A stretch of 64,000 nucleotides of DNA from Desulfuromonadales bacterium (GTDB lineage: Bacteria; Desulfobacterota; Desulfuromonadia; Desulfuromonadales; BM103), in NCBI GenBank assembly GCA_037383085.1, contig JARRPG010000001.1, positions 53,422-117,421 of the forward strand. The letters run 5' to 3'. A model generated the notes under the pieces. It saw nothing but the letters and a program-made list of their open reading frames with translations, did not search any database and was not told where the DNA came from. Shown here piece after piece: positions 11,060 through 34,498 of the stretch. Within the stretch, counting starts at the first letter, position 1; each line of letters starts with the position of its first letter. The position numbers were made by a program, and so were the translations under genes.

Positions 11060-12988
11060 ATGATTTATACGCAATCGCCTCTGGCCATCGGCCTGTTCAT
11101 CTTTTTCGTTCTCTTCGTCCTTGGCCTGTCCTTCTATCTGGCGCGCCGGACCACCTCCGCTTCCGGTTATTATGCCGCCGGTGGCAATATTCACTGGTTC
11201 ACCAATGGCATCGCTTTTGCTGGGGACTATCTCTCGGCCGCCTCGTTCCTCGGGATTTGCGGCATGATTGCAACCGCCGGATACGACGGCTGGATGTATT
11301 CGATCGGCTATCTCGCCGGCTGGATGGTCGCCCTGTTCCTGGTGGCCGAGCCGATGAAGCGGCTTGGCAAGTACACCTTTACCGACGCGCTCGATTCGAA
11401 GTTCAATTCCAAGGCGATCCAGCTGATGGCCGCCATCTCGACGCTGGCCGTTTCGGTCTTCTACCTGATCCCGCAGATGGTCGGTGCCGGTGTCCTGGTG
11501 CAGCCGCTGCTTGGCATGCCACACTGGGTCGGCGTCTGCATCGTCGGTGTCGTGGTCACGATCATCGTTGCCACCGCGGGAATGGCTTCCACCACCTACG
11601 TCCAGTTCTTCAAGGGGGCCCTGCTGCTGATTGTCTCCACCGTTGTCGTGATCTCGGTCCTGGTACGCGGTCTCGGCACGGACCCGAACCATGGCGGCGC
11701 CAAGGAATACCATGACTTCAAGACGGTGCAGGCCGCCGTCGAAGGCGGCAGTCTGCAAGTCGCCGGTTATGACGTGGTCGCTGGTCTCGATTCCGACTTC
11801 GGCAAGAAGGGCTTCGTGATGCTCGCCAAAGATGGCGAGCAATCGGTCTGGCATCTCAAGGAAGCGGCGGCCGGCTACGAACTTTCCGAGACCCTTTACG
11901 TGACCACCAACGAGGACGGCACCAAGCTGTATAACGGTGCCCCAAAGGAAGACGGCAAGTTCTTCCCGGTCGGGCACATCAAGGAGATCACCATCGACGG
12001 CAAAGAGGTTGCCCAGACCGGCGCCGTCGGCCCGCTGGCCTATCTGAACCGCTTCAAGGAGAGCACCATCGTCCTGTGGGGCAAGCAGTACCTGGAAAGC
12101 GGCAACCAGCGCTTCACCATCTACTACCAGAAGCCGACTCCCGGCAGCCGCATCCTGCGGCCTGGTCTGAAGTTCAAGGTTGACAACGCCACCGGCCTGC
12201 AAAAGTTCAATTTCATCTCTCTGATGATCGCCCTGTTCTGCGGCACGGCAGCTCTGCCGCACATCCTGATCCGTTACTACACCGTGCCGAGTCAGGCCGC
12301 CGCGCGGAAGTCGACCATCGTCGGCATCGCCGCAATCGGTTTCTTCTACATCCTGACCCTGTATCTCGGCCTCGGTGCCATGACCAACGGCGTCATAAAC
12401 ATTACCGACAACAACATGTCGGCACCGTTGCTGGCGCTCTCCTTCGGGGTGGTCCTGTTTGCAGTGATCTCATCACTGGCCTTTGCCACCGTTCTCGGTA
12501 CCGTCTCGGGCCTGATCGTCGCCTCCGCCGGCGCCGTCGCCCATGACTTGATGGACAACTTCTTCGGCATGAACATGTCGGAGAAAGGCAAGGTCATGGC
12601 CGGTAAGGTTTCGGCCATGGTGATCGGCGCGATCGCCATTTATCTCGGCATCGTCTTCGAAGGAATGAACGTCTCCTTTTTGGTCGGCTGGGCCTTTGCG
12701 GTCGCCGCTTCGGCCAACCTGCCGGCCATCCTGATGATCCTGTTCTGGAAGAAGACCACGGCCCAGGGCGTGGCCGCCTCGATCCTGGTCGGCCTGACAT
12801 CCGCTCTCGGCCTGATCCTCGTATCCCCGGACATGTGGGTCCGCTACGGCCTACTGCCCCAGGATGCGCCAATCGCCTTTAACAGCCCGGCGGCCATCTC
12901 GATCCCGGCCAGTTTCATCGCTCTGGTTCTGGTCTCCCTGGTCACCCAGAAGAAGGGGGCCCTGGTCGAGGAAGGCGCCGAAGCCTGA
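11060..12988 (+). CDS. actP: Cation/acetate symporter (SSF family, ActP-like) with a large inserted hydrophilic domain
   Basis: 642 aa. SSF motifs (GGNIHWFTNGIAFAGDYLSAASFLG, AALPHILIRYYTV). Residues about 203-385 are hydrophilic and lie between TM segments. Confidence 0.85.
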   Translation: MIYTQSPLAIGLFIFFVLFVLGLSFYLARRTTSASGYYAAGGNIHWFTNGIAFAGDYLSAASFLGICGMIATAGYDGWMYSIGYLAGWMVALFLVAEPMKRLGKYTFTDALDSKFNSKAIQLMAAISTLAVSVFYLIPQMVGAGVLVQPLLGMPHWVGVCIVGVVVTIIVATAGMASTTYVQFFKGALLLIVSTVVVISVLVRGLGTDPNHGGAKEYHDFKTVQAAVEGGSLQVAGYDVVAGLDSDFGKKGFVMLAKDGEQSVWHLKEAAAGYELSETLYVTTNEDGTKLYNGAPKEDGKFFPVGHIKEITIDGKEVAQTGAVGPLAYLNRFKESTIVLWGKQYLESGNQRFTIYYQKPTPGSRILRPGLKFKVDNATGLQKFNFISLMIALFCGTAALPHILIRYYTVPSQAAARKSTIVGIAAIGFFYILTLYLGLGAMTNGVINITDNNMSAPLLALSFGVVLFAVISSLAFATVLGTVSGLIVASAGAVAHDLMDNFFGMNMSEKGKVMAGKVSAMVIGAIAIYLGIVFEGMNVSFLVGWAFAVAASANLPAILMILFWKKTTAQGVAASILVGLTSALGLILVSPDMWVRYGLLPQDAPIAFNSPAAISIPASFIALVLVSLVTQKKGALVEEGAEA

Positions 12989-17856: not shown

Positions 17857-17887
17857 AAGGGGATGGCCATCACGTGGTCATCCCCTT
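17857..17887 (-). terminator. Terminator after the proline dehydrogenase gene
   Basis: On the minus strand: AAGGGGATG-13 nt loop-CATCCCCTT followed by TT(C). The 9-bp stem starts 24 nt after the stop. Confidence 0.55.
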
Positions 17888-17910: not shown

Positions 17911-18825
17911 TTAAACCGACTTCCTTTTCATACCAAGCATCTGTCTCAGGGCGTGTTGGGCAATGCTCGGGTTCTCCTTCAGGCGGCGCTTCGAATAAGG
18001 CAGCCAGGATTTGCCGAAGGGCACATAAACCCGCAGGCGATGACCCTGGGCCACCAGCAGGTCGCGCAGTTCCGGGTCGACACCGAGCAGCATCTGAAAT
18101 TCATAGTCCTCGCGTTTCAGACCGTATTTCCGAATCAGTTGCAGCGACTCGAAGACCAGCTTTTCATCGTGCGTGGCAATGCCCACATAGGCCCCTTTTT
18201 CAAACATCAGGTCCAGGCAGCAGACAAAGCTGCGGTTGATGATTGCCATGTCCTTGTAGGCAATCTCGCGCGGCTCGTTGTAAATCCCCTTGCAGAGTCG
18301 GAAATGCAGCAGACCGTCACTTAAGGCTTCGATATCGGCGAGGGTGCGGCGCAGATACGACTGCAGCACCACGCCGACATGGCCGGGGAATTCCTCCCGC
18401 AGACGTCGGAAGAAGTCGAGGGTGTCGTCGGTACAGGGGTGATCTTCCATGTCGATCCGGACAAAATTGTTCCGTTCAGCTGCCAGCGTGACGATTTCGC
18501 GGATGTTTTCAAAAGCGAACTCCTTGTCGAGTTCGAGCCCCATCTGGGTCGGTTTCAACGACAGGTTGGCATCCAGCCCTTCCTTGTCGATGCCGCGCAG
18601 GATCTCCAGGCATTGATCCTTGAAATAGGTGGCTTCCTCTTTCGTTTTGATGAATTCACCGAGGATATCGATTGTCGCCATCATCCCTTTGCTGTTGAAA
18701 TCCCGGGTGACGGCGACCGCGTCCTTGAGTTCCTCGCCGGCGATGTACCCTTTGGCGAAGAGGCCGACGATCGGCCCGGGAACATGCATGATGGTTTTCG
18801 AGACAAGCAGATTGAACAGGGACAT
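17911..18825 (-). CDS. Proline dehydrogenase (monofunctional PRODH)
   Basis: TIM-barrel PRODH pattern (ATIDILGE..., VRIDMEDH..., VVLQSYLRRT, RLCKGIY, VGIATHD, FQMLLGV). The ATG at 18825 is preceded by GGAGG, which lies inside the GTG-extended ORF. Confidence 0.85.
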   Translation of the reverse strand: MSLFNLLVSKTIMHVPGPIVGLFAKGYIAGEELKDAVAVTRDFNSKGMMATIDILGEFIKTKEEATYFKDQCLEILRGIDKEGLDANLSLKPTQMGLELDKEFAFENIREIVTLAAERNNFVRIDMEDHPCTDDTLDFFRRLREEFPGHVGVVLQSYLRRTLADIEALSDGLLHFRLCKGIYNEPREIAYKDMAIINRSFVCCLDLMFEKGAYVGIATHDEKLVFESLQLIRKYGLKREDYEFQMLLGVDPELRDLLVAQGHRLRVYVPFGKSWLPYSKRRLKENPSIAQHALRQMLGMKRKSV

Positions 18826-18887
18826 GGCGTCCTCCACAAGGAAATGTTAAGGGTGGGCGGACAGCCAGCGCTGTCCGCCCCGCATTA

Positions 18888-20531
18888 TCACTCGGCGTCC
18901 ATGAACGGGTAGGCAAAGTCCGTCGGCGGCACGAAGGTCTCCTTGACGGTGCGCGGCGAGACCCAGCGCAGCAGGTTGGTGTAGGAACCGGCCTTGTCAT
19001 TGGTCCCGGAGGCACGCCCACCGCCGAAAGGCTGCTGGCCGACGACGGCGCCGGTCGGCTTGTCGTTGATGTAGAAATTGCCGGCAGCATTTTCGAGCTT
19101 GGCCATGGCCAGTGAAACCGCCATACGCTCGGTGGCGAAGACCGCACCCGTCAAGGCGTAGGGCGAGGTCCGGTCGCAGAGGTCCAGGGTTTCTTCGTAT
19201 TGGTCATCCTCATAGACGTAAAGGGTCAGCACCGGACCGAAGATCTCCTCTGCCATGGTGCGAAAGTCCGGGGTCTTGGCCAGGATCACGGTCGGCTCGA
19301 TGAAGTAGCCGGTGCTGTCATCGTAGTTGCCGCCGAGAATGATTTCCGCATCGTCGGACTGCTTGGCATCATCGATATAGGCCGTGATGTCCGCGAAGGC
19401 ACCTTTGTCGATGACCGCACTGAAGAAACAGGAGAAATCGTCGGTCGGCCCCATCTTGATGCGACCCACCTGATCCTCAAGGCCGGCGCGGACGTCGCTC
19501 CAGATCGACTGCGGAATGTAGGCGCGCGAAGCGGCCGAACATTTCTGACCCTGGTATTCGAAGGCCCCCCGGACCAGCGCGGTGACCAGCGCGTCGATGT
19601 CGGCGCTCTTGTGCGCAAAGACAAAGTCCTTGCCACCGGTCTCGCCGACGATCCGTGGATAGGACTTGTACTTGGCGATGTTGTTGCCGATCGTCTGCCA
19701 CATGTCCTGGAAGACCGCGGTGCTGCCGGTGAAATGCACCCCGGCAAATTCAGGACTGTCCATGCAGAGCGGTCCAACCACCGATCCCGGCCCCGGGACG
19801 AAGTTGATGACGCCATCGGGCAACCCGGCTTCCTGCAGGATCCTCATGAACAGGTAAGGAGTGTAGACGCAGGACGAAGCCGGCTTCCAGAGCGCCACGT
19901 TGCCCATGATCGCCGGCGCTGTCGGTAGGTTGCCGGCAATCGCGGTGAAATTGAACGGTGTCACGGCGAAGACGAATCCTTCCAGGGGCCGCTGCTGGAC
20001 GTAATTCCAGACGCCCTTCGAATTGTGCAGCGGCTGCTCCTGGTAGATCTGCTGGGCAAAGTAGACGTTGAAGCGCAGGAAATCGATCAGCTCGCAGGCG
20101 GCATCGATCTCTGCCTGAAAAGCGGTTTTGCCCGTCGAGAGCATGCTGCCGGCATTGATCAGGTAACGGTATTTGGTACTGAGCAGCTCGGCGGCCTTGA
20201 GAAAGATGCCGGCGCGTTCTTCCCAGCGCAGGGTCTTCCATTCCTGCTGGGCCGCGACGGCGGCATCGATCGCCATCTGCACTTCTTTCGGACCGGCCAT
20301 GTGATATTCGGCCAGCACATGCTGATGGTTGTGCGGCATCACCACTTTGCCGAGCTTACCGGTGCGGACCTCCTTGCCGCCGATGATCAGCGGGATCTCG
20401 ATTTTTTTGCCCTGGGTTTCGGCCAGAGCAGCCTTGAGTTTTTCCCGCTCCGGGCTGCCGGGGGCATAATTGTAAACCGGTTCGTTCTGTGGGAAAGGAA
20501 CCTTGATGGTGGCGTTGTTCACTAAGTTCAT
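18888..20531 (-). CDS. pruA: L-glutamate gamma-semialdehyde (delta-1-pyrroline-5-carboxylate) dehydrogenase
   Basis: 547 aa from the ATG at 20531 (GGGAG RBS). ALDH superfamily with the catalytic region ETGGKD / YQGQKCSAASR typical of P5CDH, and N-terminus MNLVNNATIKVPFPQNEPVYNYAPGSPER. Confidence 0.85.
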   Translation of the reverse strand: MNLVNNATIKVPFPQNEPVYNYAPGSPEREKLKAALAETQGKKIEIPLIIGGKEVRTGKLGKVVMPHNHQHVLAEYHMAGPKEVQMAIDAAVAAQQEWKTLRWEERAGIFLKAAELLSTKYRYLINAGSMLSTGKTAFQAEIDAACELIDFLRFNVYFAQQIYQEQPLHNSKGVWNYVQQRPLEGFVFAVTPFNFTAIAGNLPTAPAIMGNVALWKPASSCVYTPYLFMRILQEAGLPDGVINFVPGPGSVVGPLCMDSPEFAGVHFTGSTAVFQDMWQTIGNNIAKYKSYPRIVGETGGKDFVFAHKSADIDALVTALVRGAFEYQGQKCSAASRAYIPQSIWSDVRAGLEDQVGRIKMGPTDDFSCFFSAVIDKGAFADITAYIDDAKQSDDAEIILGGNYDDSTGYFIEPTVILAKTPDFRTMAEEIFGPVLTLYVYEDDQYEETLDLCDRTSPYALTGAVFATERMAVSLAMAKLENAAGNFYINDKPTGAVVGQQPFGGGRASGTNDKAGSYTNLLRWVSPRTVKETFVPPTDFAYPFMDAE

Positions 20532-20638
20532 GACGTCTCCCTTTCGTGTTAAGAGCCAATATCCTGTCGGATGATCGTGATCTGCATAGTCTTGCCGGTT
20601 GCTGAAAACCCGGCTCCATAATGCTGACAGACTGAATG

Positions 20639-20655
20639 AGCAAACAGGATGCCAA
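20639..20655 (-). promoter_or_regulatory. Sigma-54 (-24/-12) promoter for pruA and the proline dehydrogenase gene
   Basis: The minus strand reads TTGGCATCCTGTTTGCT, i.e. TGGCAT-N5-TTGCT with exact GG-to-GC spacing of 12. About 105 nt upstream of the pruA ATG. Confidence 0.75.
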
Positions 20656-20863
20656 GCGGATGCAGGTTTGCCCAAAGGGGTGCTGGTTGTGCGGTGAGAG
20701 GCCCCTCCCCCGCGCCATAAGGCCATTACAAGATACTTATTTTATTAGCTTTTTTAGAATATAGCGCTGTTTGCAGAGGACTTCGGGAAAATTCGCTCAG
20801 GGCCGCTCGAGGAGAAAATGCCTGTCGCCATCAGAAGAGCACAGGCGTCTTCAAAAATTAATT

Positions 20864-20877
20864 ATGCAAATAGACAT
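20864..20877. promoter_or_regulatory. Candidate enhancer (UAS) site, ATGCAA-N5-CAT copy 1
   Basis: ATGCAAATAGACAT. Its centre is 218 bp upstream of the -24 GG of the pruA sigma-54 promoter. Confidence 0.45.
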
Positions 20878-20936
20878 AATGAGCTTTTTTCTTGTGTCAT
20901 CTAAAATACTGTAATCATTTATTTAAATTTCTTTTT

Positions 20937-20950
20937 ATGCAAAAAAACAT
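20937..20950. promoter_or_regulatory. Candidate enhancer (UAS) site, ATGCAA-N5-CAT copy 2
   Basis: ATGCAAAAAAACAT, 73 bp from copy 1 (about 7 helical turns). Confidence 0.35.
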
Positions 20951-20991
20951 GTAGGCTCTTGACCCGAACAATTAATGCGTTTTCGCATCAA

Positions 20992-21906
20992 TCAGCCTCC
21001 TACCGTGGCCCGCAAGCCATGCTCACCGAACACCCGGATCGCCCGCTCGAGACCTTCCGGACCCGGTTCGTGGATGGCGTGCAGATCGCGATGCTGCCCC
21101 AGCTTGGCATCTTTGCCTCGAGCCACATCATGATAGGGAAGCAGGTTCACCGCCTTGCGCGAACCGGCCAGACCGGCCACAAAATCGGCGATCCCGGCCA
21201 GGTTCTCGGCATCATCATTGACACCACCGAGCAGGGGCACACGCACCTGAATCGCGACACCGGTCGCGGCCAGGGCCTCGAGGTTGTTGAGAATCAGCGA
21301 ATTATCGACCCCGGTGTAGCGGCGATGCCGGTCGGTGTCGATCAGCTTCAGGTCATAGAGGAAAAGGTCGGCATGCCGGGCCACCTCGAGCAGGGTCGCG
21401 GTTTTGACATAGCCTGAGGTGTCAATAGCGCGGTGAATGCCGCGCGCACCGCAGCGGTCAAGGAGTTCGATCAGAAAATCCGGATAAAGCAAGGGCTCGC
21501 CGCCCGAGAACGTCACCCCCCCAGCGGACTGATCGAAAAAAGGCCGCTCCTTTTCGATCACAGCCAGGATCTCTTCGACGGCCATCGGCCGCCCCGAAAT
21601 TTCCGTCGCCAGGGCCGGACAGGCGGCTGCGCAGGCACCGCAGAGAGTACACACCGCGTGATCGGTGACCACCCCCTCGGCGTTGAGCTCACAGGCCTGT
21701 CGGGGACAGACCCGGCAACACTCCCGGCAGCCGATGCACTTGGCCGCGGTGAAGAGCTTCTGCGGGCGGGCGGAAATGCTTTCGGGGTTGTGACACCACT
21801 GGCAATTCAGCGGACAGCCCTTGAAGAAGACCGTGACGCGAATGCCCGGACCGTCGTTGATCGCGTAACGCTTGATATCGAAGATGAGGGGCTCTTGCAT
21901 GATCAC
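20992..21906 (-). CDS. Glycyl-radical enzyme activating protein (radical SAM, with ferredoxin-like insert)
   Basis: CPLNCQWCHNPE (the CxxxCxxC radical-SAM cluster) plus two extra Cys clusters, CIGCRECCRVCP and CTLCGACAAACP. The GGEPLL SAM motif is present. The start is ambiguous (GTG at 21906 or ATG at 21900). Confidence 0.9.
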   Translation of the reverse strand: MIMQEPLIFDIKRYAINDGPGIRVTVFFKGCPLNCQWCHNPESISARPQKLFTAAKCIGCRECCRVCPRQACELNAEGVVTDHAVCTLCGACAAACPALATEISGRPMAVEEILAVIEKERPFFDQSAGGVTFSGGEPLLYPDFLIELLDRCGARGIHRAIDTSGYVKTATLLEVARHADLFLYDLKLIDTDRHRRYTGVDNSLILNNLEALAATGVAIQVRVPLLGGVNDDAENLAGIADFVAGLAGSRKAVNLLPYHDVARGKDAKLGQHRDLHAIHEPGPEGLERAIRVFGEHGLRATVGG

Positions 21907-24628: not shown

Positions 24629-24868
24629 CAGGCGGACCGTTGAACCGCCTGAAAAGATTCCACCTGGTCACAGAATTGAGCAAGAAGGATACCAAAGCGA
24701 TGTTTTCTGAAGATATTTACAAGAGCTTGAAATCAAAGCCTTTTAAGTAACGGAAGCGGAAATTTCGCGGGCGGCCGCCGGAGGATTGCTATTCACTGCA
24801 GAATCGATAATTCAGGAAGGAATAAATCGGCCCCTGGCCATGACGCGCAAGAGCTTTCTGATCAGAGT

Positions 24869-32182: not shown

Positions 32183-32326
32183 CTCTTTTCTCCTTGAGGT
32201 TGGAAGTTAGTGAGTCGACGCCTGCGTCGAGACTCCTGCCATTTAACAGCACTGAAATGTGATAACTATACCACTTTGAATACAACTGCAAAGTGATCGG
32301 CCCAACAAACTCTACCGATCTTCCAG

Positions 32327-32342
32327 AGCAAAGCTAATGCCA
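32327..32342 (-). promoter_or_regulatory. Sigma-54 (-24/-12) promoter for the liv-type operon
   Basis: The minus strand reads TGGCATTAGCTTTGCT (TGGCAT-N5-TTGCT, exact spacing). About 145 nt upstream of the livK ATG. Confidence 0.75.
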
Positions 32343-32552: not shown

Positions 32553-32566
32553 ATGCAAGACTGCAT
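32553..32566. promoter_or_regulatory. Candidate enhancer (UAS) palindrome, an ATGCAA-N5-CAT copy
   Basis: ATGCAAGACTGCAT (arms ATGCA/TGCAT). Its centre is 219 bp upstream of the -24 GG of the liv promoter. Confidence 0.45.
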
Positions 32567-32584: not shown

Positions 32585-34327
32585 TCACAGGCCATAACGT
32601 TTCAGCTTGCGGGCCACGGTGGACTGGTTGATACCCAGGGCGGCCGCAATATCGGCCTGGTTGCGATAACGCTCACGGGCCTTGGCCAGCAAGTTCCGCT
32701 CGACCGCTTCGACCGCCTGCTGCAGGGTGGTCGCCTCCGGCCAGTCGAGACGGGACTCCCGACCGGCAGAGGTGGTGCCAGCGACCTGCGTCGGCAGATC
32801 AGCCAGGTCGATCATCTCGGTGTCCGACATCACGACGACCCGTTCGCAGATATTCATCAACTCCCGGACGTTGCCCGGAAAGGAATAGTGAACCAGGGCA
32901 TCGATGGCAGCCCGGGACAGGCGTTTCTTCTCCTGGTTGATGGCGGCAAAATGGTCGATGTAGTGACGAATCAGCGGCACCAGACAATCTTTACGCTCGC
33001 GCAGGGCGGGAACGTGAATCGGAATGACATTCAGCCGGTCGTAAAGATCCAGTCGAAAGGTTCCCTTCTCGACCATGTCCTCCAGGTCGCGATGGGTCGC
33101 AGCCAGCACCCGCACATCGACCTGGCGTTCCTCGGTGCCGCCAAGCCGGGTGATGTGACCGTCTTCGAGGAAACGCAGCAGCTTGACCTGGGCGGACAGC
33201 GGCAGCTCGGCGATCTCGTCCAGGAACAGGATCCCTTCGTTGGCCAGTTCGAACTGACCCGGCTTGCCCCCCGGGCTGGCACCGGTAAACGCCCCTTTCT
33301 CATAGCCGAAGAGTTCCGCCTCGATCAACGATTCCGGAATCGCCCCGCAGTTGATTTTGATCAGTGGCCGGCCGGCCCGCGCCGAATTCTGGTGGATCAT
33401 CTCTGCGATGACCCCTTTGCCAACTCCCGATTCACCGAGAATCAGCACTGACGAATCGGCCGATGCCACCTTGATGGCCTGACGCAGCGATTTGATCATG
33501 TTCGGGCTGCGCGCGATGATTTTTCGTTTGTCGAGTTCAACCTGCTGCATTTCCAGCATCTGGTTGCGAAACTGGTCCTTGATCGCTTCCTGGTTTTCCA
33601 GTTCGCGCTGCAGCTTGTCGATCTCGGTAATGTCGCGTTCACTGACCACGACCCTGATCAGTTCTCCGCTCTGGTCGAAGACCGGCGTGCCGATGGAGAT
33701 CAGTTTGCGGCCATTGGGCATGTTCTGCAAAAGGCTCACGGTGGTCTTCTCCTGACACGCCTCGAGTGCCGCTGAGCGATCGATAAAACCTTCTTCGATC
33801 AGTTCCCGCATGTTGCGCCCGACCAGTTCCGCCGCAGAGCGTTGATGAATTTTTTCCGAGGCCGGGTTAACCCGAATGACATTGGCGTCACTGTCACAAA
33901 CGAACAGGCCGTCCGAGGACGAATCGATAATGGCATGCAGCTCCAGGGTCAAGGCTTCGAAGTCGAGCATGCGGCGATCTACATCGGGCGGCGACGGTGC
34001 CGGCGGCAGCAGGCAGAGCGTCAGAACACGGCCGTCCGGCGCCTTGACGGTACTCAACATCGCCAAATAGGGAGCGCTGGCACCGCGCAGGATGGTCAGG
34101 GGCGGGTTGGCCGCCGCGCTGCGACGGAAATGATCCATGCTTTCGGCCAGTTTCGGCATGAATTGCCGCAGCGGTTTCTGCAGAGCGATCTGCAACTGTT
34201 TGTCGGCAGCTTCATTGGCATAAACCAGGCGGCCGTCGTCATCGCAAACCAGCAGCGGCACCGCCAGGGCGGACAGAAAGATGGGGGCCAGCGAGGGGAC
34301 ATTCTGCGGGGGGAGGGGCTCGGGCAT
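32585..34327 (-). CDS. Sigma-54-dependent transcriptional activator (2x PAS - AAA+ - Fis HTH), here called EBP2, a paralogue of EBP1
   Basis: [21 protein letters not shown], and C-terminal HTH ADIAAALGINQSTVARKLKRYGL. The PAS core [28 protein letters not shown] is nearly identical to EBP1. Start at the ATG at 34327 with an AAGGAG RBS. Confidence 0.9.
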   Translation of the reverse strand: MPEPLPPQNVPSLAPIFLSALAVPLLVCDDDGRLVYANEAADKQLQIALQKPLRQFMPKLAESMDHFRRSAAANPPLTILRGASAPYLAMLSTVKAPDGRVLTLCLLPPAPSPPDVDRRMLDFEALTLELHAIIDSSSDGLFVCDSDANVIRVNPASEKIHQRSAAELVGRNMRELIEEGFIDRSAALEACQEKTTVSLLQNMPNGRKLISIGTPVFDQSGELIRVVVSERDITEIDKLQRELENQEAIKDQFRNQMLEMQQVELDKRKIIARSPNMIKSLRQAIKVASADSSVLILGESGVGKGVIAEMIHQNSARAGRPLIKINCGAIPESLIEAELFGYEKGAFTGASPGGKPGQFELANEGILFLDEIAELPLSAQVKLLRFLEDGHITRLGGTEERQVDVRVLAATHRDLEDMVEKGTFRLDLYDRLNVIPIHVPALRERKDCLVPLIRHYIDHFAAINQEKKRLSRAAIDALVHYSFPGNVRELMNICERVVVMSDTEMIDLADLPTQVAGTTSAGRESRLDWPEATTLQQAVEAVERNLLAKARERYRNQADIAAALGINQSTVARKLKRYGL

Positions 34328-34357: not shown

Positions 34358-34390
34358 ATGCGGAACTGCATTATTTATGCAACAAGGAAT
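34358..34390. promoter_or_regulatory. Two further ATGC(A/G)(A/G)-N5-(C/A)AT motif copies in the EBP2 promoter/leader
   Basis: ATGCGGAACTGCAT (34358..34371) and ATGCAACAAGGAAT (34377..34390). On the minus strand they overlap a possible TTGCAT-N18-TAAGAT sigma-70 promoter. Confidence 0.4.
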
Positions 34391-34498
34391 TGTCGATGCC
34401 CGACACCCCGCCCGAAAACCGCTCTTTTCCATCGCTTGGCCAGACAGAATTGCCTCTCAGAAGTTGGTACATTCCTTGAACAGAAATGAGCGGATGTC

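Follow-up and report, generated by a model that had tools for sequence, protein, structure and literature searches.

The window analysed here is a 64-kb (64,000-nucleotide) stretch of a Desulfuromonadales genome. Within it we studied the non-coding spacer in front of a gene pair for proline oxidation, which encodes 1-pyrroline-5-carboxylate (P5C, L-glutamate gamma-semialdehyde) dehydrogenase (P5CDH) and proline dehydrogenase (PRODH). The spacer contains a near-consensus sigma-54 -24/-12 element and, upstream of it, three copies of a palindrome, ATGCA-N4-TGCAT, that also flanks the gene for the sigma-54 activator EBP2 (EBP, enhancer-binding protein) in related genomes. We conclude from the sequence comparisons, with a probability of about 0.78, that a functional sigma-54 promoter with an EBP2-type enhancer of three palindromes drives the P5CDH-PRODH pair. 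The genes concerned and the spacer are:

17911..18837, minus strand: PRODH, monofunctional proline dehydrogenase (Pfam Pro_dh), second gene of the transcription unit
18888..20531, minus strand: P5CDH, first gene of the transcription unit, with its ATG at 20531
20532..20991: non-coding spacer of 460 bp between the hydroxyproline dehydratase activase gene and P5CDH
20992..21906, minus strand: radical-SAM activase (hydroxyproline dehydratase activase), whose stop codon borders the spacer
32585..34327, minus strand: EBP2, a PAS-PAS-AAA+-HTH sigma-54 activator with an intact GAFTGA motif (Pfam and NCBIfam), about 12 kb upstream of the P5CDH promoter

P5CDH was identified by TIGR01236 (794 bits, cut-off 614) and also by Pfam Aldedh. 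From about 34.3 kb down to 17.9 kb every gene lies on the minus strand, in the order EBP2, a livKHMGF-type ABC importer, a tandem Usp protein, a second activator (EBP1), a small CsaA-like frame, hypD, the activase, P5CDH and PRODH; the CsaA-like frame between EBP1 and hypD was read by eye. The hypD product is a glycyl radical enzyme that passed the trans-4-hydroxy-L-proline dehydratase model NF043068 (1171 bits, cut-off 1100). By established enzymology, P5C is the product of both HypD and PRODH, which makes P5CDH the common downstream step. The genome encodes rpoN (a Sigma54_DBD match of 144.8 bits on contig C79) and has 19 matches to the sigma-54 activator domain. The nearest relatives, according to the search for P5CDH relatives, are metagenome-assembled genomes of the Desulfuromonadales.

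The -24/-12 element before P5CDH

The candidate promoter lies at the following position:

20655..20639, minus strand: sigma-54 -24/-12 element TTGGCATCCTGTTTGCT, with GG at 20653/20652 and GC at 20641/20640

Its core, TGGCATCCTGTTTGCT (20654..20639, minus strand), is one common C-to-T variant away from TGGCAC-N5-TTGCW, and the distance between GG and GC is exactly 10 nt. The element is oriented like P5CDH and lies in non-coding DNA, 108 nt before the ATG of that gene. A preliminary description of this stretch, made from the sequence alone, had already given this promoter string with exact -24/-12 spacing, and the sequence confirmed both. TGGCAY-N5-TTGCW occurs three times in the window, where 0.09 matches are expected and none of 100 shuffles gave three, and 11 times in the 2.67 Mb genome, where our own calculation from base composition gives an expectation of about 4.5. 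The looser TGGYAY-N5-TTGCW has 16 genome matches: 11 without a long open frame across them, the P5CDH site as a twelfth non-coding match, and four in coding sequence. The -24/-12 pattern alone is no proof of a promoter; matches in the right place are strongly enriched.

One of the four coding matches, the perfect TGGCATCGCTTTTGCT, is also found in the window (11206-11221, plus strand), about 49 codons into the frame of an ActP-like symporter (11060..12988). It is probably a chance match; it could also represent an internal promoter or indicate a mis-called start.

Comparison with other genomes was based on 80 fetched loci that encode P5CDH relatives, eight of Desulfuromonadales type and 72 more distant. 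A -24/-12 element precedes the orthologous P5CDH in all eight Desulfuromonadales-type loci: seven of them (L001-L005, L007 and L009) have TGGCAY-N5-TTGCT 81-138 nt before the start codon, and the eighth (L011) has the variant TGGTCACGTCCTTGCT. The alignment of the eight upstream regions (A1) has a mean column identity of 43%, and within it TTGGCA, the following C and TTGCT are invariant. Among the 72 distant loci there is no consensus element, only four weak non-consensus look-alikes. These data bear out the earlier assignment of the P5CDH-PRODH pair to a sigma-54 promoter, and as a prediction from sequence this promoter is well supported. No sigma-70-like promoter was found in the spacer.

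Transcription from this element is predicted to give a short leader:

20532..20628, minus strand: predicted 5' leader of about 97 nt, with the ribosome-binding site GGGAG at 20541..20537

A riboswitch or otherwise structured leader was rejected, since no Rfam family matched 20300..21200 at E values up to 1 and the predicted leader shows no unusual fold, folding no better than shuffled sequences (z = -0.92). At the other end of the unit, 3' of PRODH, a hairpin GGGGATG...CATCCCC with only a short T-run lies at about 17857..17887; it was absent from the output of a simple scan for terminators, and it is uncertain where the P5CDH-PRODH unit ends. A 440-aa gene and an EamA gene downstream of PRODH are syntenic in L005 and L007.

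Upstream palindromes and their probable activators

The features upstream of the promoter, with centres counted from the predicted transcription start, and the two further palindromes of the same type in the window are:

20975..20988: site a, palindrome (minus strand ATGCG-AAAA-CGCAT), centre at about -353, starting 3 nt after the activase stop codon
20937..20950: site b, ATGCAAAAAAACAT (minus strand ATGTTTTTTTGCAT), centre at about -315, with a degenerate promoter-distal half-site
20864..20877: site c, ATGCAAATAGACAT (minus strand ATGTCTATTTGCAT), centre at about -242, 229.5 bp from the -12 G
20878..20936: AT-rich DNA separating sites b and c, conserved in length and not in sequence
20723..20764: another AT-rich stretch, rich in A-tracts, at about -95 to -136, between enhancer and promoter; a candidate bend or nucleoid-protein site
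32553..32566: liv palindrome ATGCAAGACTGCAT, perfect, upstream of the liv sigma-54 promoter (32327..32342, minus strand)
34358..34371: palindrome ATGCGGAACTGCAT, 31 nt upstream of the probable start codon of EBP2 (34327)

The preliminary description had proposed an enhancer made of two ATGCAA-N5-CAT sites, ATGCAAATAGACAT and ATGCAAAAAAACAT, and we found both sequences in place, 73 bp apart from start to start. The alignment of orthologous regions redefined the motif: the real unit is the palindrome ATGCA-N4-TGCAT (14-16 bp), usually flanked as TTATGCA-N4-TGCATAA. The enhancer thus held in substance, with a different motif and with three sites instead of two. Site a, which had been overlooked, scores best of the three copies and aligns with perfect palindromes in L001, L005 and L007. 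The literal ATGCAA-N5-CAT was rejected as the motif, since it occurs 15 times in the genome with about 11 expected, which is background; in the window it occurs three times with 0.54 expected, a number reached by 3 of 100 shuffles. A background frequency of the 14-nt motif in the genome had been named beforehand as a result that would refute the enhancer, and for the literal pattern this is what we observed. Genome-wide background frequency is an unfair test where a regulator acts locally and on few sites. With the literal motif the observation of two sites is weak, and it is strong after redefinition of the motif.

Mismatch counting to the palindrome was uninformative, the observed numbers equalling the expected ones, and it was therefore replaced by a matrix of 20 columns built from 17 sites, all taken from other genomes, with which the whole 2.67 Mb assembly was scanned. 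The best match is the site before EBP2 (34358..34371), followed by site a, site c, the liv site, a site on contig C5 and site b, so that five of the top six positions in the genome belong to this island. The site on contig C5 (C5:60335) was rejected as an additional regulon member, because it lies, like a -24/-12 look-alike close to it, within a chemotaxis coding sequence; the matrix match is probably due to chance. In 5000 first-order Markov simulations of the spacer, with scores set against its own composition, none gave three sites as good, and simulation of the AT-rich part alone led to the same result. With at most one mismatch and within 450 nt upstream of P5CDH, the palindrome is present in all eight Desulfuromonadales-type loci and in none of the 72 others.

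The arrangement of the sites is also conserved. The three sites are spaced by 38 and 73 bp in the window and by 37 and 73 bp in L005 and L007, and in L001 the outer sites are 110 bp apart; a and b are about 3.6 helical turns apart, b and c seven. In L007 the three sites, two of them perfect, occupy the same relative places, and L005 and L001 are similar. A single perfect site is found in the loci without hypD before P5CDH (L002, L003, L004, L009 and L011). The liv palindrome closely follows the stop codon of EBP2, precedes the liv -24/-12 element by 224 bp and is conserved in G001, G002, G003 and family-level relatives. Site c and the liv site lie almost equally far from their own -12 elements (229.5 and 230.5 bp), suggesting a common geometry. 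Both the comparison of palindromes and the matrix scan support the earlier statement that the P5CDH and liv promoters, 12 kb apart, have an upstream motif in common.

The DNA between the two sites first described is strongly AT-rich, as had been stated (GC 0.20 for 20850..20949). This tract had been called consistent with bending or with IHF (integration host factor); it separates two activator sites from each other and does not separate the enhancer from the promoter. The second stretch, at 20723..20764, does lie between enhancer and promoter, and both the liv promoter and the orthologous promoters have comparable A/T-rich stretches in the corresponding position.

The identity of the activator was addressed with 29 loci for EBP2-type genes, fetched from across the order, in which EBP2-type proteins were found in 47 of 151 sampled genomes and 24 of 63 genera. 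The palindrome is located just after the EBP2-type gene in 23 of the 29 loci and around or before its start in 20, and a strict -24/-12 match lies downstream of the gene in 22. The next gene is P5CDH in 17 loci, that of LivK in eight and PRODH in two. In L002, L004, L009 and L011 the immediate upstream neighbour of P5CDH is an EBP2-type gene that has palindromes on either side. An EBP2 orthologue (75-79% identity) is also encoded in each of the genomes of L007, L005 and L001; behind it comes a palindrome and, after another 213-234 bp, a sigma-54 element in front of livK. Since the palindrome flanks EBP2 orthologues across the order, EBP2 is the likely binder. Conserved, specific sites that co-occur with EBP2 orthologues also support the proposal that proline/P5C oxidation is under the control of an enhancer-binding protein.

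The palindrome in front of EBP2 itself is likely an autoregulation site. The longest EBP2 frame starts at 34432, and its first 35 codons cross this palindrome (34358..34371); it is the conserved DNA site that creates the apparent N-terminal similarity of the long frame to L009. Translation probably begins at the ATG at 34327, which gives a protein of 580 aa in agreement with the lengths of the orthologues.

EBP1, encoded next to hypD, has a PAS-AAA+-HTH layout with GAFTGA present in the alignment, and is a paralogue of EBP2, about 60% identical over the shared PAS-AAA+-HTH part. The promoter beside it has the following features:

24694..24679, minus strand: hypD sigma-54 element TGGTATCCTTCTTGCT, conserved in L001, L005 and L007
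24790..24805 and 24809..24824: hypD-type palindromes TATTC-N6-GAATA, two tandem imperfect copies, about 105-130 bp upstream of the hypD element

Judged by its sequence, the hypD promoter is sigma-54 dependent, and the tandem palindromes, which are likewise conserved in L001, L005 and L007, probably form the EBP1 enhancer. The simplest reading of these co-occurrences is that EBP2 binds ATGCA-N4-TGCAT and EBP1 binds TATTC-N6-GAATA.

Related palindromes were also observed elsewhere. A one-mismatch copy of the hypD type, TATACCACTTTGAATA, lies in the liv leader (32267-32282), downstream of the sigma-54 element and ahead of the livK start, and may be either chance or a contact for EBP1. Two other activator genes, on contigs C36 and C2, are followed by the palindrome TTGCA-N4-TGCAA, which lies 179 bp (C36:1057-1251) and 127 bp (C2:20373-20534) upstream of the good -24/-12 elements TGGCATACGGCTTGCT and TGGTACACCGCTTGCT. 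These palindromes suggest that the genome has a family of paralogous activators whose half-sites are related.

Proposed mechanism and alternative explanations

According to the mechanism that we propose, sigma-54 RNA polymerase would form a closed complex on TGGCAT-N5-TTGCT (20654..20639), and transcription would start near 20628 and run through the leader of about 97 nt into P5CDH and PRODH. Opening of the promoter would need an AAA+ activator on sites a-c, most probably the PrdR-like EBP2. The PAS domains of EBP2 would take an amino-acid signal, for which proline is the obvious candidate and also a guess. EBP2 would assemble on sites a-c, the DNA would loop, perhaps aided by the A/T-rich stretch at about -95 to -136, and ATP hydrolysis would open the promoter. 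The predicted targets of the palindrome, namely P5CDH-PRODH, the liv-type importer operon and the gene of EBP2 itself, would form one small regulon for the uptake of proline (or a closely related amino acid) and its oxidation to glutamate. A search for intrinsic terminators between the activase gene and P5CDH found none, so that transcripts from the hypD promoter may read through and add a second, hydroxyproline-linked input.

Several observations weigh against this interpretation. The sites are unusually far upstream, from -242 to -353. Sites a, b and c all deviate from the perfect palindrome at two positions, and the simple 10-base palindrome is at background in the genome, with 2, 58 and 810 sites at zero, one and two mismatches (1.6, 52 and 758 expected). 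Among the 29 EBP2 loci, seven have no strict -24/-12 match in the pattern scan, and five of these seven carry the downstream palindrome. The suggestion of IHF is unsupported: the spacer (20532..20991) has no exact match to the IHF consensus WATCARNNNNTTR, and the 250 nt upstream of the -24 element have no match to WATCAANNNNTTR within one mismatch. The consensus is that of E. coli, which has also been used for Geobacter (PMC7962754). Finally, the recognition helices of the two paralogues, NQSTVARKL in EBP2 and SQPTVARKL in EBP1, are nearly identical, so that EBP1 may bind here or the two may cross-bind.

This last point leads to an alternative in which the promoter is real and its activator is another one: EBP1, or both paralogues, would bind the three palindromes, and a hydroxyproline signal would mainly switch on P5C oxidation. 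Besides the two helices, which differ at two positions only, such a reading could appeal to the EBP1 gene being nearer than the EBP2 gene and to the three-site array itself, which is found only where hypD and the activase precede P5CDH (the window, L001, L005 and L007), the other loci having one site. Two results make it unlikely in our judgement. The hypD promoter beside EBP1 has the other palindrome, TATTC-N6-GAATA, which has no match with up to two mismatches upstream of P5CDH, and ATGCA-N4-TGCAT tracks both flanks of EBP2 across the order, including loci without EBP1 or hypD in view.

We consider it still less probable that P5CDH and PRODH are mainly the tail of a hypD-activase-P5CDH-PRODH transcript and that the internal -24/-12 element is minor or a relic. 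The four genes are co-directional, the spacer lacks a recognisable terminator, and P5C, the substrate of P5CDH, is made by HypD, going by its NCBIfam assignment and established enzyme chemistry; all this would suit a long transcript. The internal element and enhancer are, however, conserved as strongly as in loci without an upstream hypD, the growth of the enhancer to three sites at precisely these loci points to use rather than decay, and a 460-bp spacer with GC down to 0.20 is atypical of a junction within an operon. The idea that the matches are fortuitous, with a sigma-70 or other promoter driving the operon and the palindromes being chance words in AT-rich DNA, has on its side the background frequency of literal ATGCAA-N5-CAT and the about four of 16 consensus-like -24/-12 genome matches that lie inside genes, probably by chance, and is strongly disfavoured by the conservation of the elements in eight related loci and further loci across the order, by sites that are top-ranked in the genome and equalled in none of the 5000 simulations, and by the lack of a sigma-70-like promoter in the spacer.

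The organization of the locus differs between the window's family and the rest of the order. Most of the order has EBP2, then P5CDH and PRODH, then livK (L002, L004, L009, L011 and L101-L120), whereas in the window's family liv comes directly after EBP2, and P5CDH-PRODH lies behind the EBP1-hypD-activase block. This gene order fits an insertion of a hydroxyproline cassette or a rearrangement.

A wider scenario that joins both activators can be offered only tentatively, and we hold it, as a whole, to be somewhat less probable than its negation. The paralogues EBP2 and EBP1 would have diverged in DNA specificity (ATGCA-N4-TGCAT and TATTC-N6-GAATA) and split one catabolic island between them. EBP2 would govern proline uptake and oxidation, a regulon conserved across the Desulfuromonadales. 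In this family a hydroxyproline dehydratase cassette would have entered between EBP2 and P5CDH, and EBP1 would govern that cassette. Activation by EBP2 would then meet EBP1-driven read-through from hypD at the P5CDH promoter, and the enhancer would have grown from one to three sites when the activator gene moved 12 kb away. If this were true, P5C from either amino acid would be oxidised to glutamate.

Comparison with known systems

A cross-phylum survey from 2025 found COG0506 (proline dehydrogenase) and COG4230 (P5C dehydrogenase) enriched behind sigma-54 promoters in Bacilli; for Desulfuromonadia it reported flagellar and cell-envelope genes only, and it assigned no activator or motif (PMC12316311). 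The paper on the RpoN regulon of Geobacter makes no mention of proline, and in the literature searched there was no paper linking hydroxyproline dehydratase to sigma-54 and no published description of the regulon proposed here. The regulon and its motif therefore appear undescribed. They would provide a concrete regulon for anaerobic use of proline and hydroxyproline in the Desulfuromonadales, with a predicted activator, DNA site and three target promoters, and the frequency of the activator family in the sampled genomes of the order would make the motif usable for wide annotation of such loci. EBP1 and EBP2, as a natural pair of close paralogues with different predicted DNA sites, would also be suited to the study of how activator specificity diverges.

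In E. coli, the two or three dyad sites for NtrC (glnAp2) and NorR (norV) upstream of the -24/-12 element are thought to nucleate the active oligomer. Those sites lie at about -100 to -150, whereas the sites described here lie at -242 to -353, with spacings of 38 and 73 bp.

PrdR of Clostridioides difficile and other Clostridiales activates the proline reductase operon from multiple activator sites upstream of a sigma-54 promoter, and its site is TGT-N10-12-ACA (PMC6615313). It is the best NCBIfam match of both EBP1 and EBP2, and shares with them the PAS-AAA+-HTH layout and the link to proline metabolism. The scores, however, do not reach the cut-off of the PrdR group NF041552 (795 bits; EBP2 402.5, EBP1 356.2), the motif is ATGCA-N4-TGCAT here in place of TGT-N10-12-ACA, and the prd targets are reductive, in contrast to the oxidative PRODH and P5CDH. 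PrdR is therefore not a suitable label for EBP1 and EBP2, given scores of about half the cut-off, another motif and reductive targets on the PrdR side.

The nearest functional analogue is the SigL/RocR system of Bacillus subtilis, in which rocABC and rocDEF depend on SigL (sigma-54) and RocR, and the first gene, rocA, encodes P5C dehydrogenase; RocR is a PAS-AAA+-HTH protein that senses ornithine and also controls a permease (PMC10404663). Both systems combine a sigma-54 promoter and upstream activator sites with a P5C dehydrogenase gene placed first in the operon. They differ in that RocR belongs to another phylum and serves arginine/ornithine catabolism, whereas proline dehydrogenase, P5CDH and a Liv-type importer are the predicted targets here; the binding motif and ligand of the Desulfuromonadales system are likewise predictions. 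The mechanism is that of a standard sigma-54/activator system, and the P5CDH locus would be a well-built but ordinary example of it.

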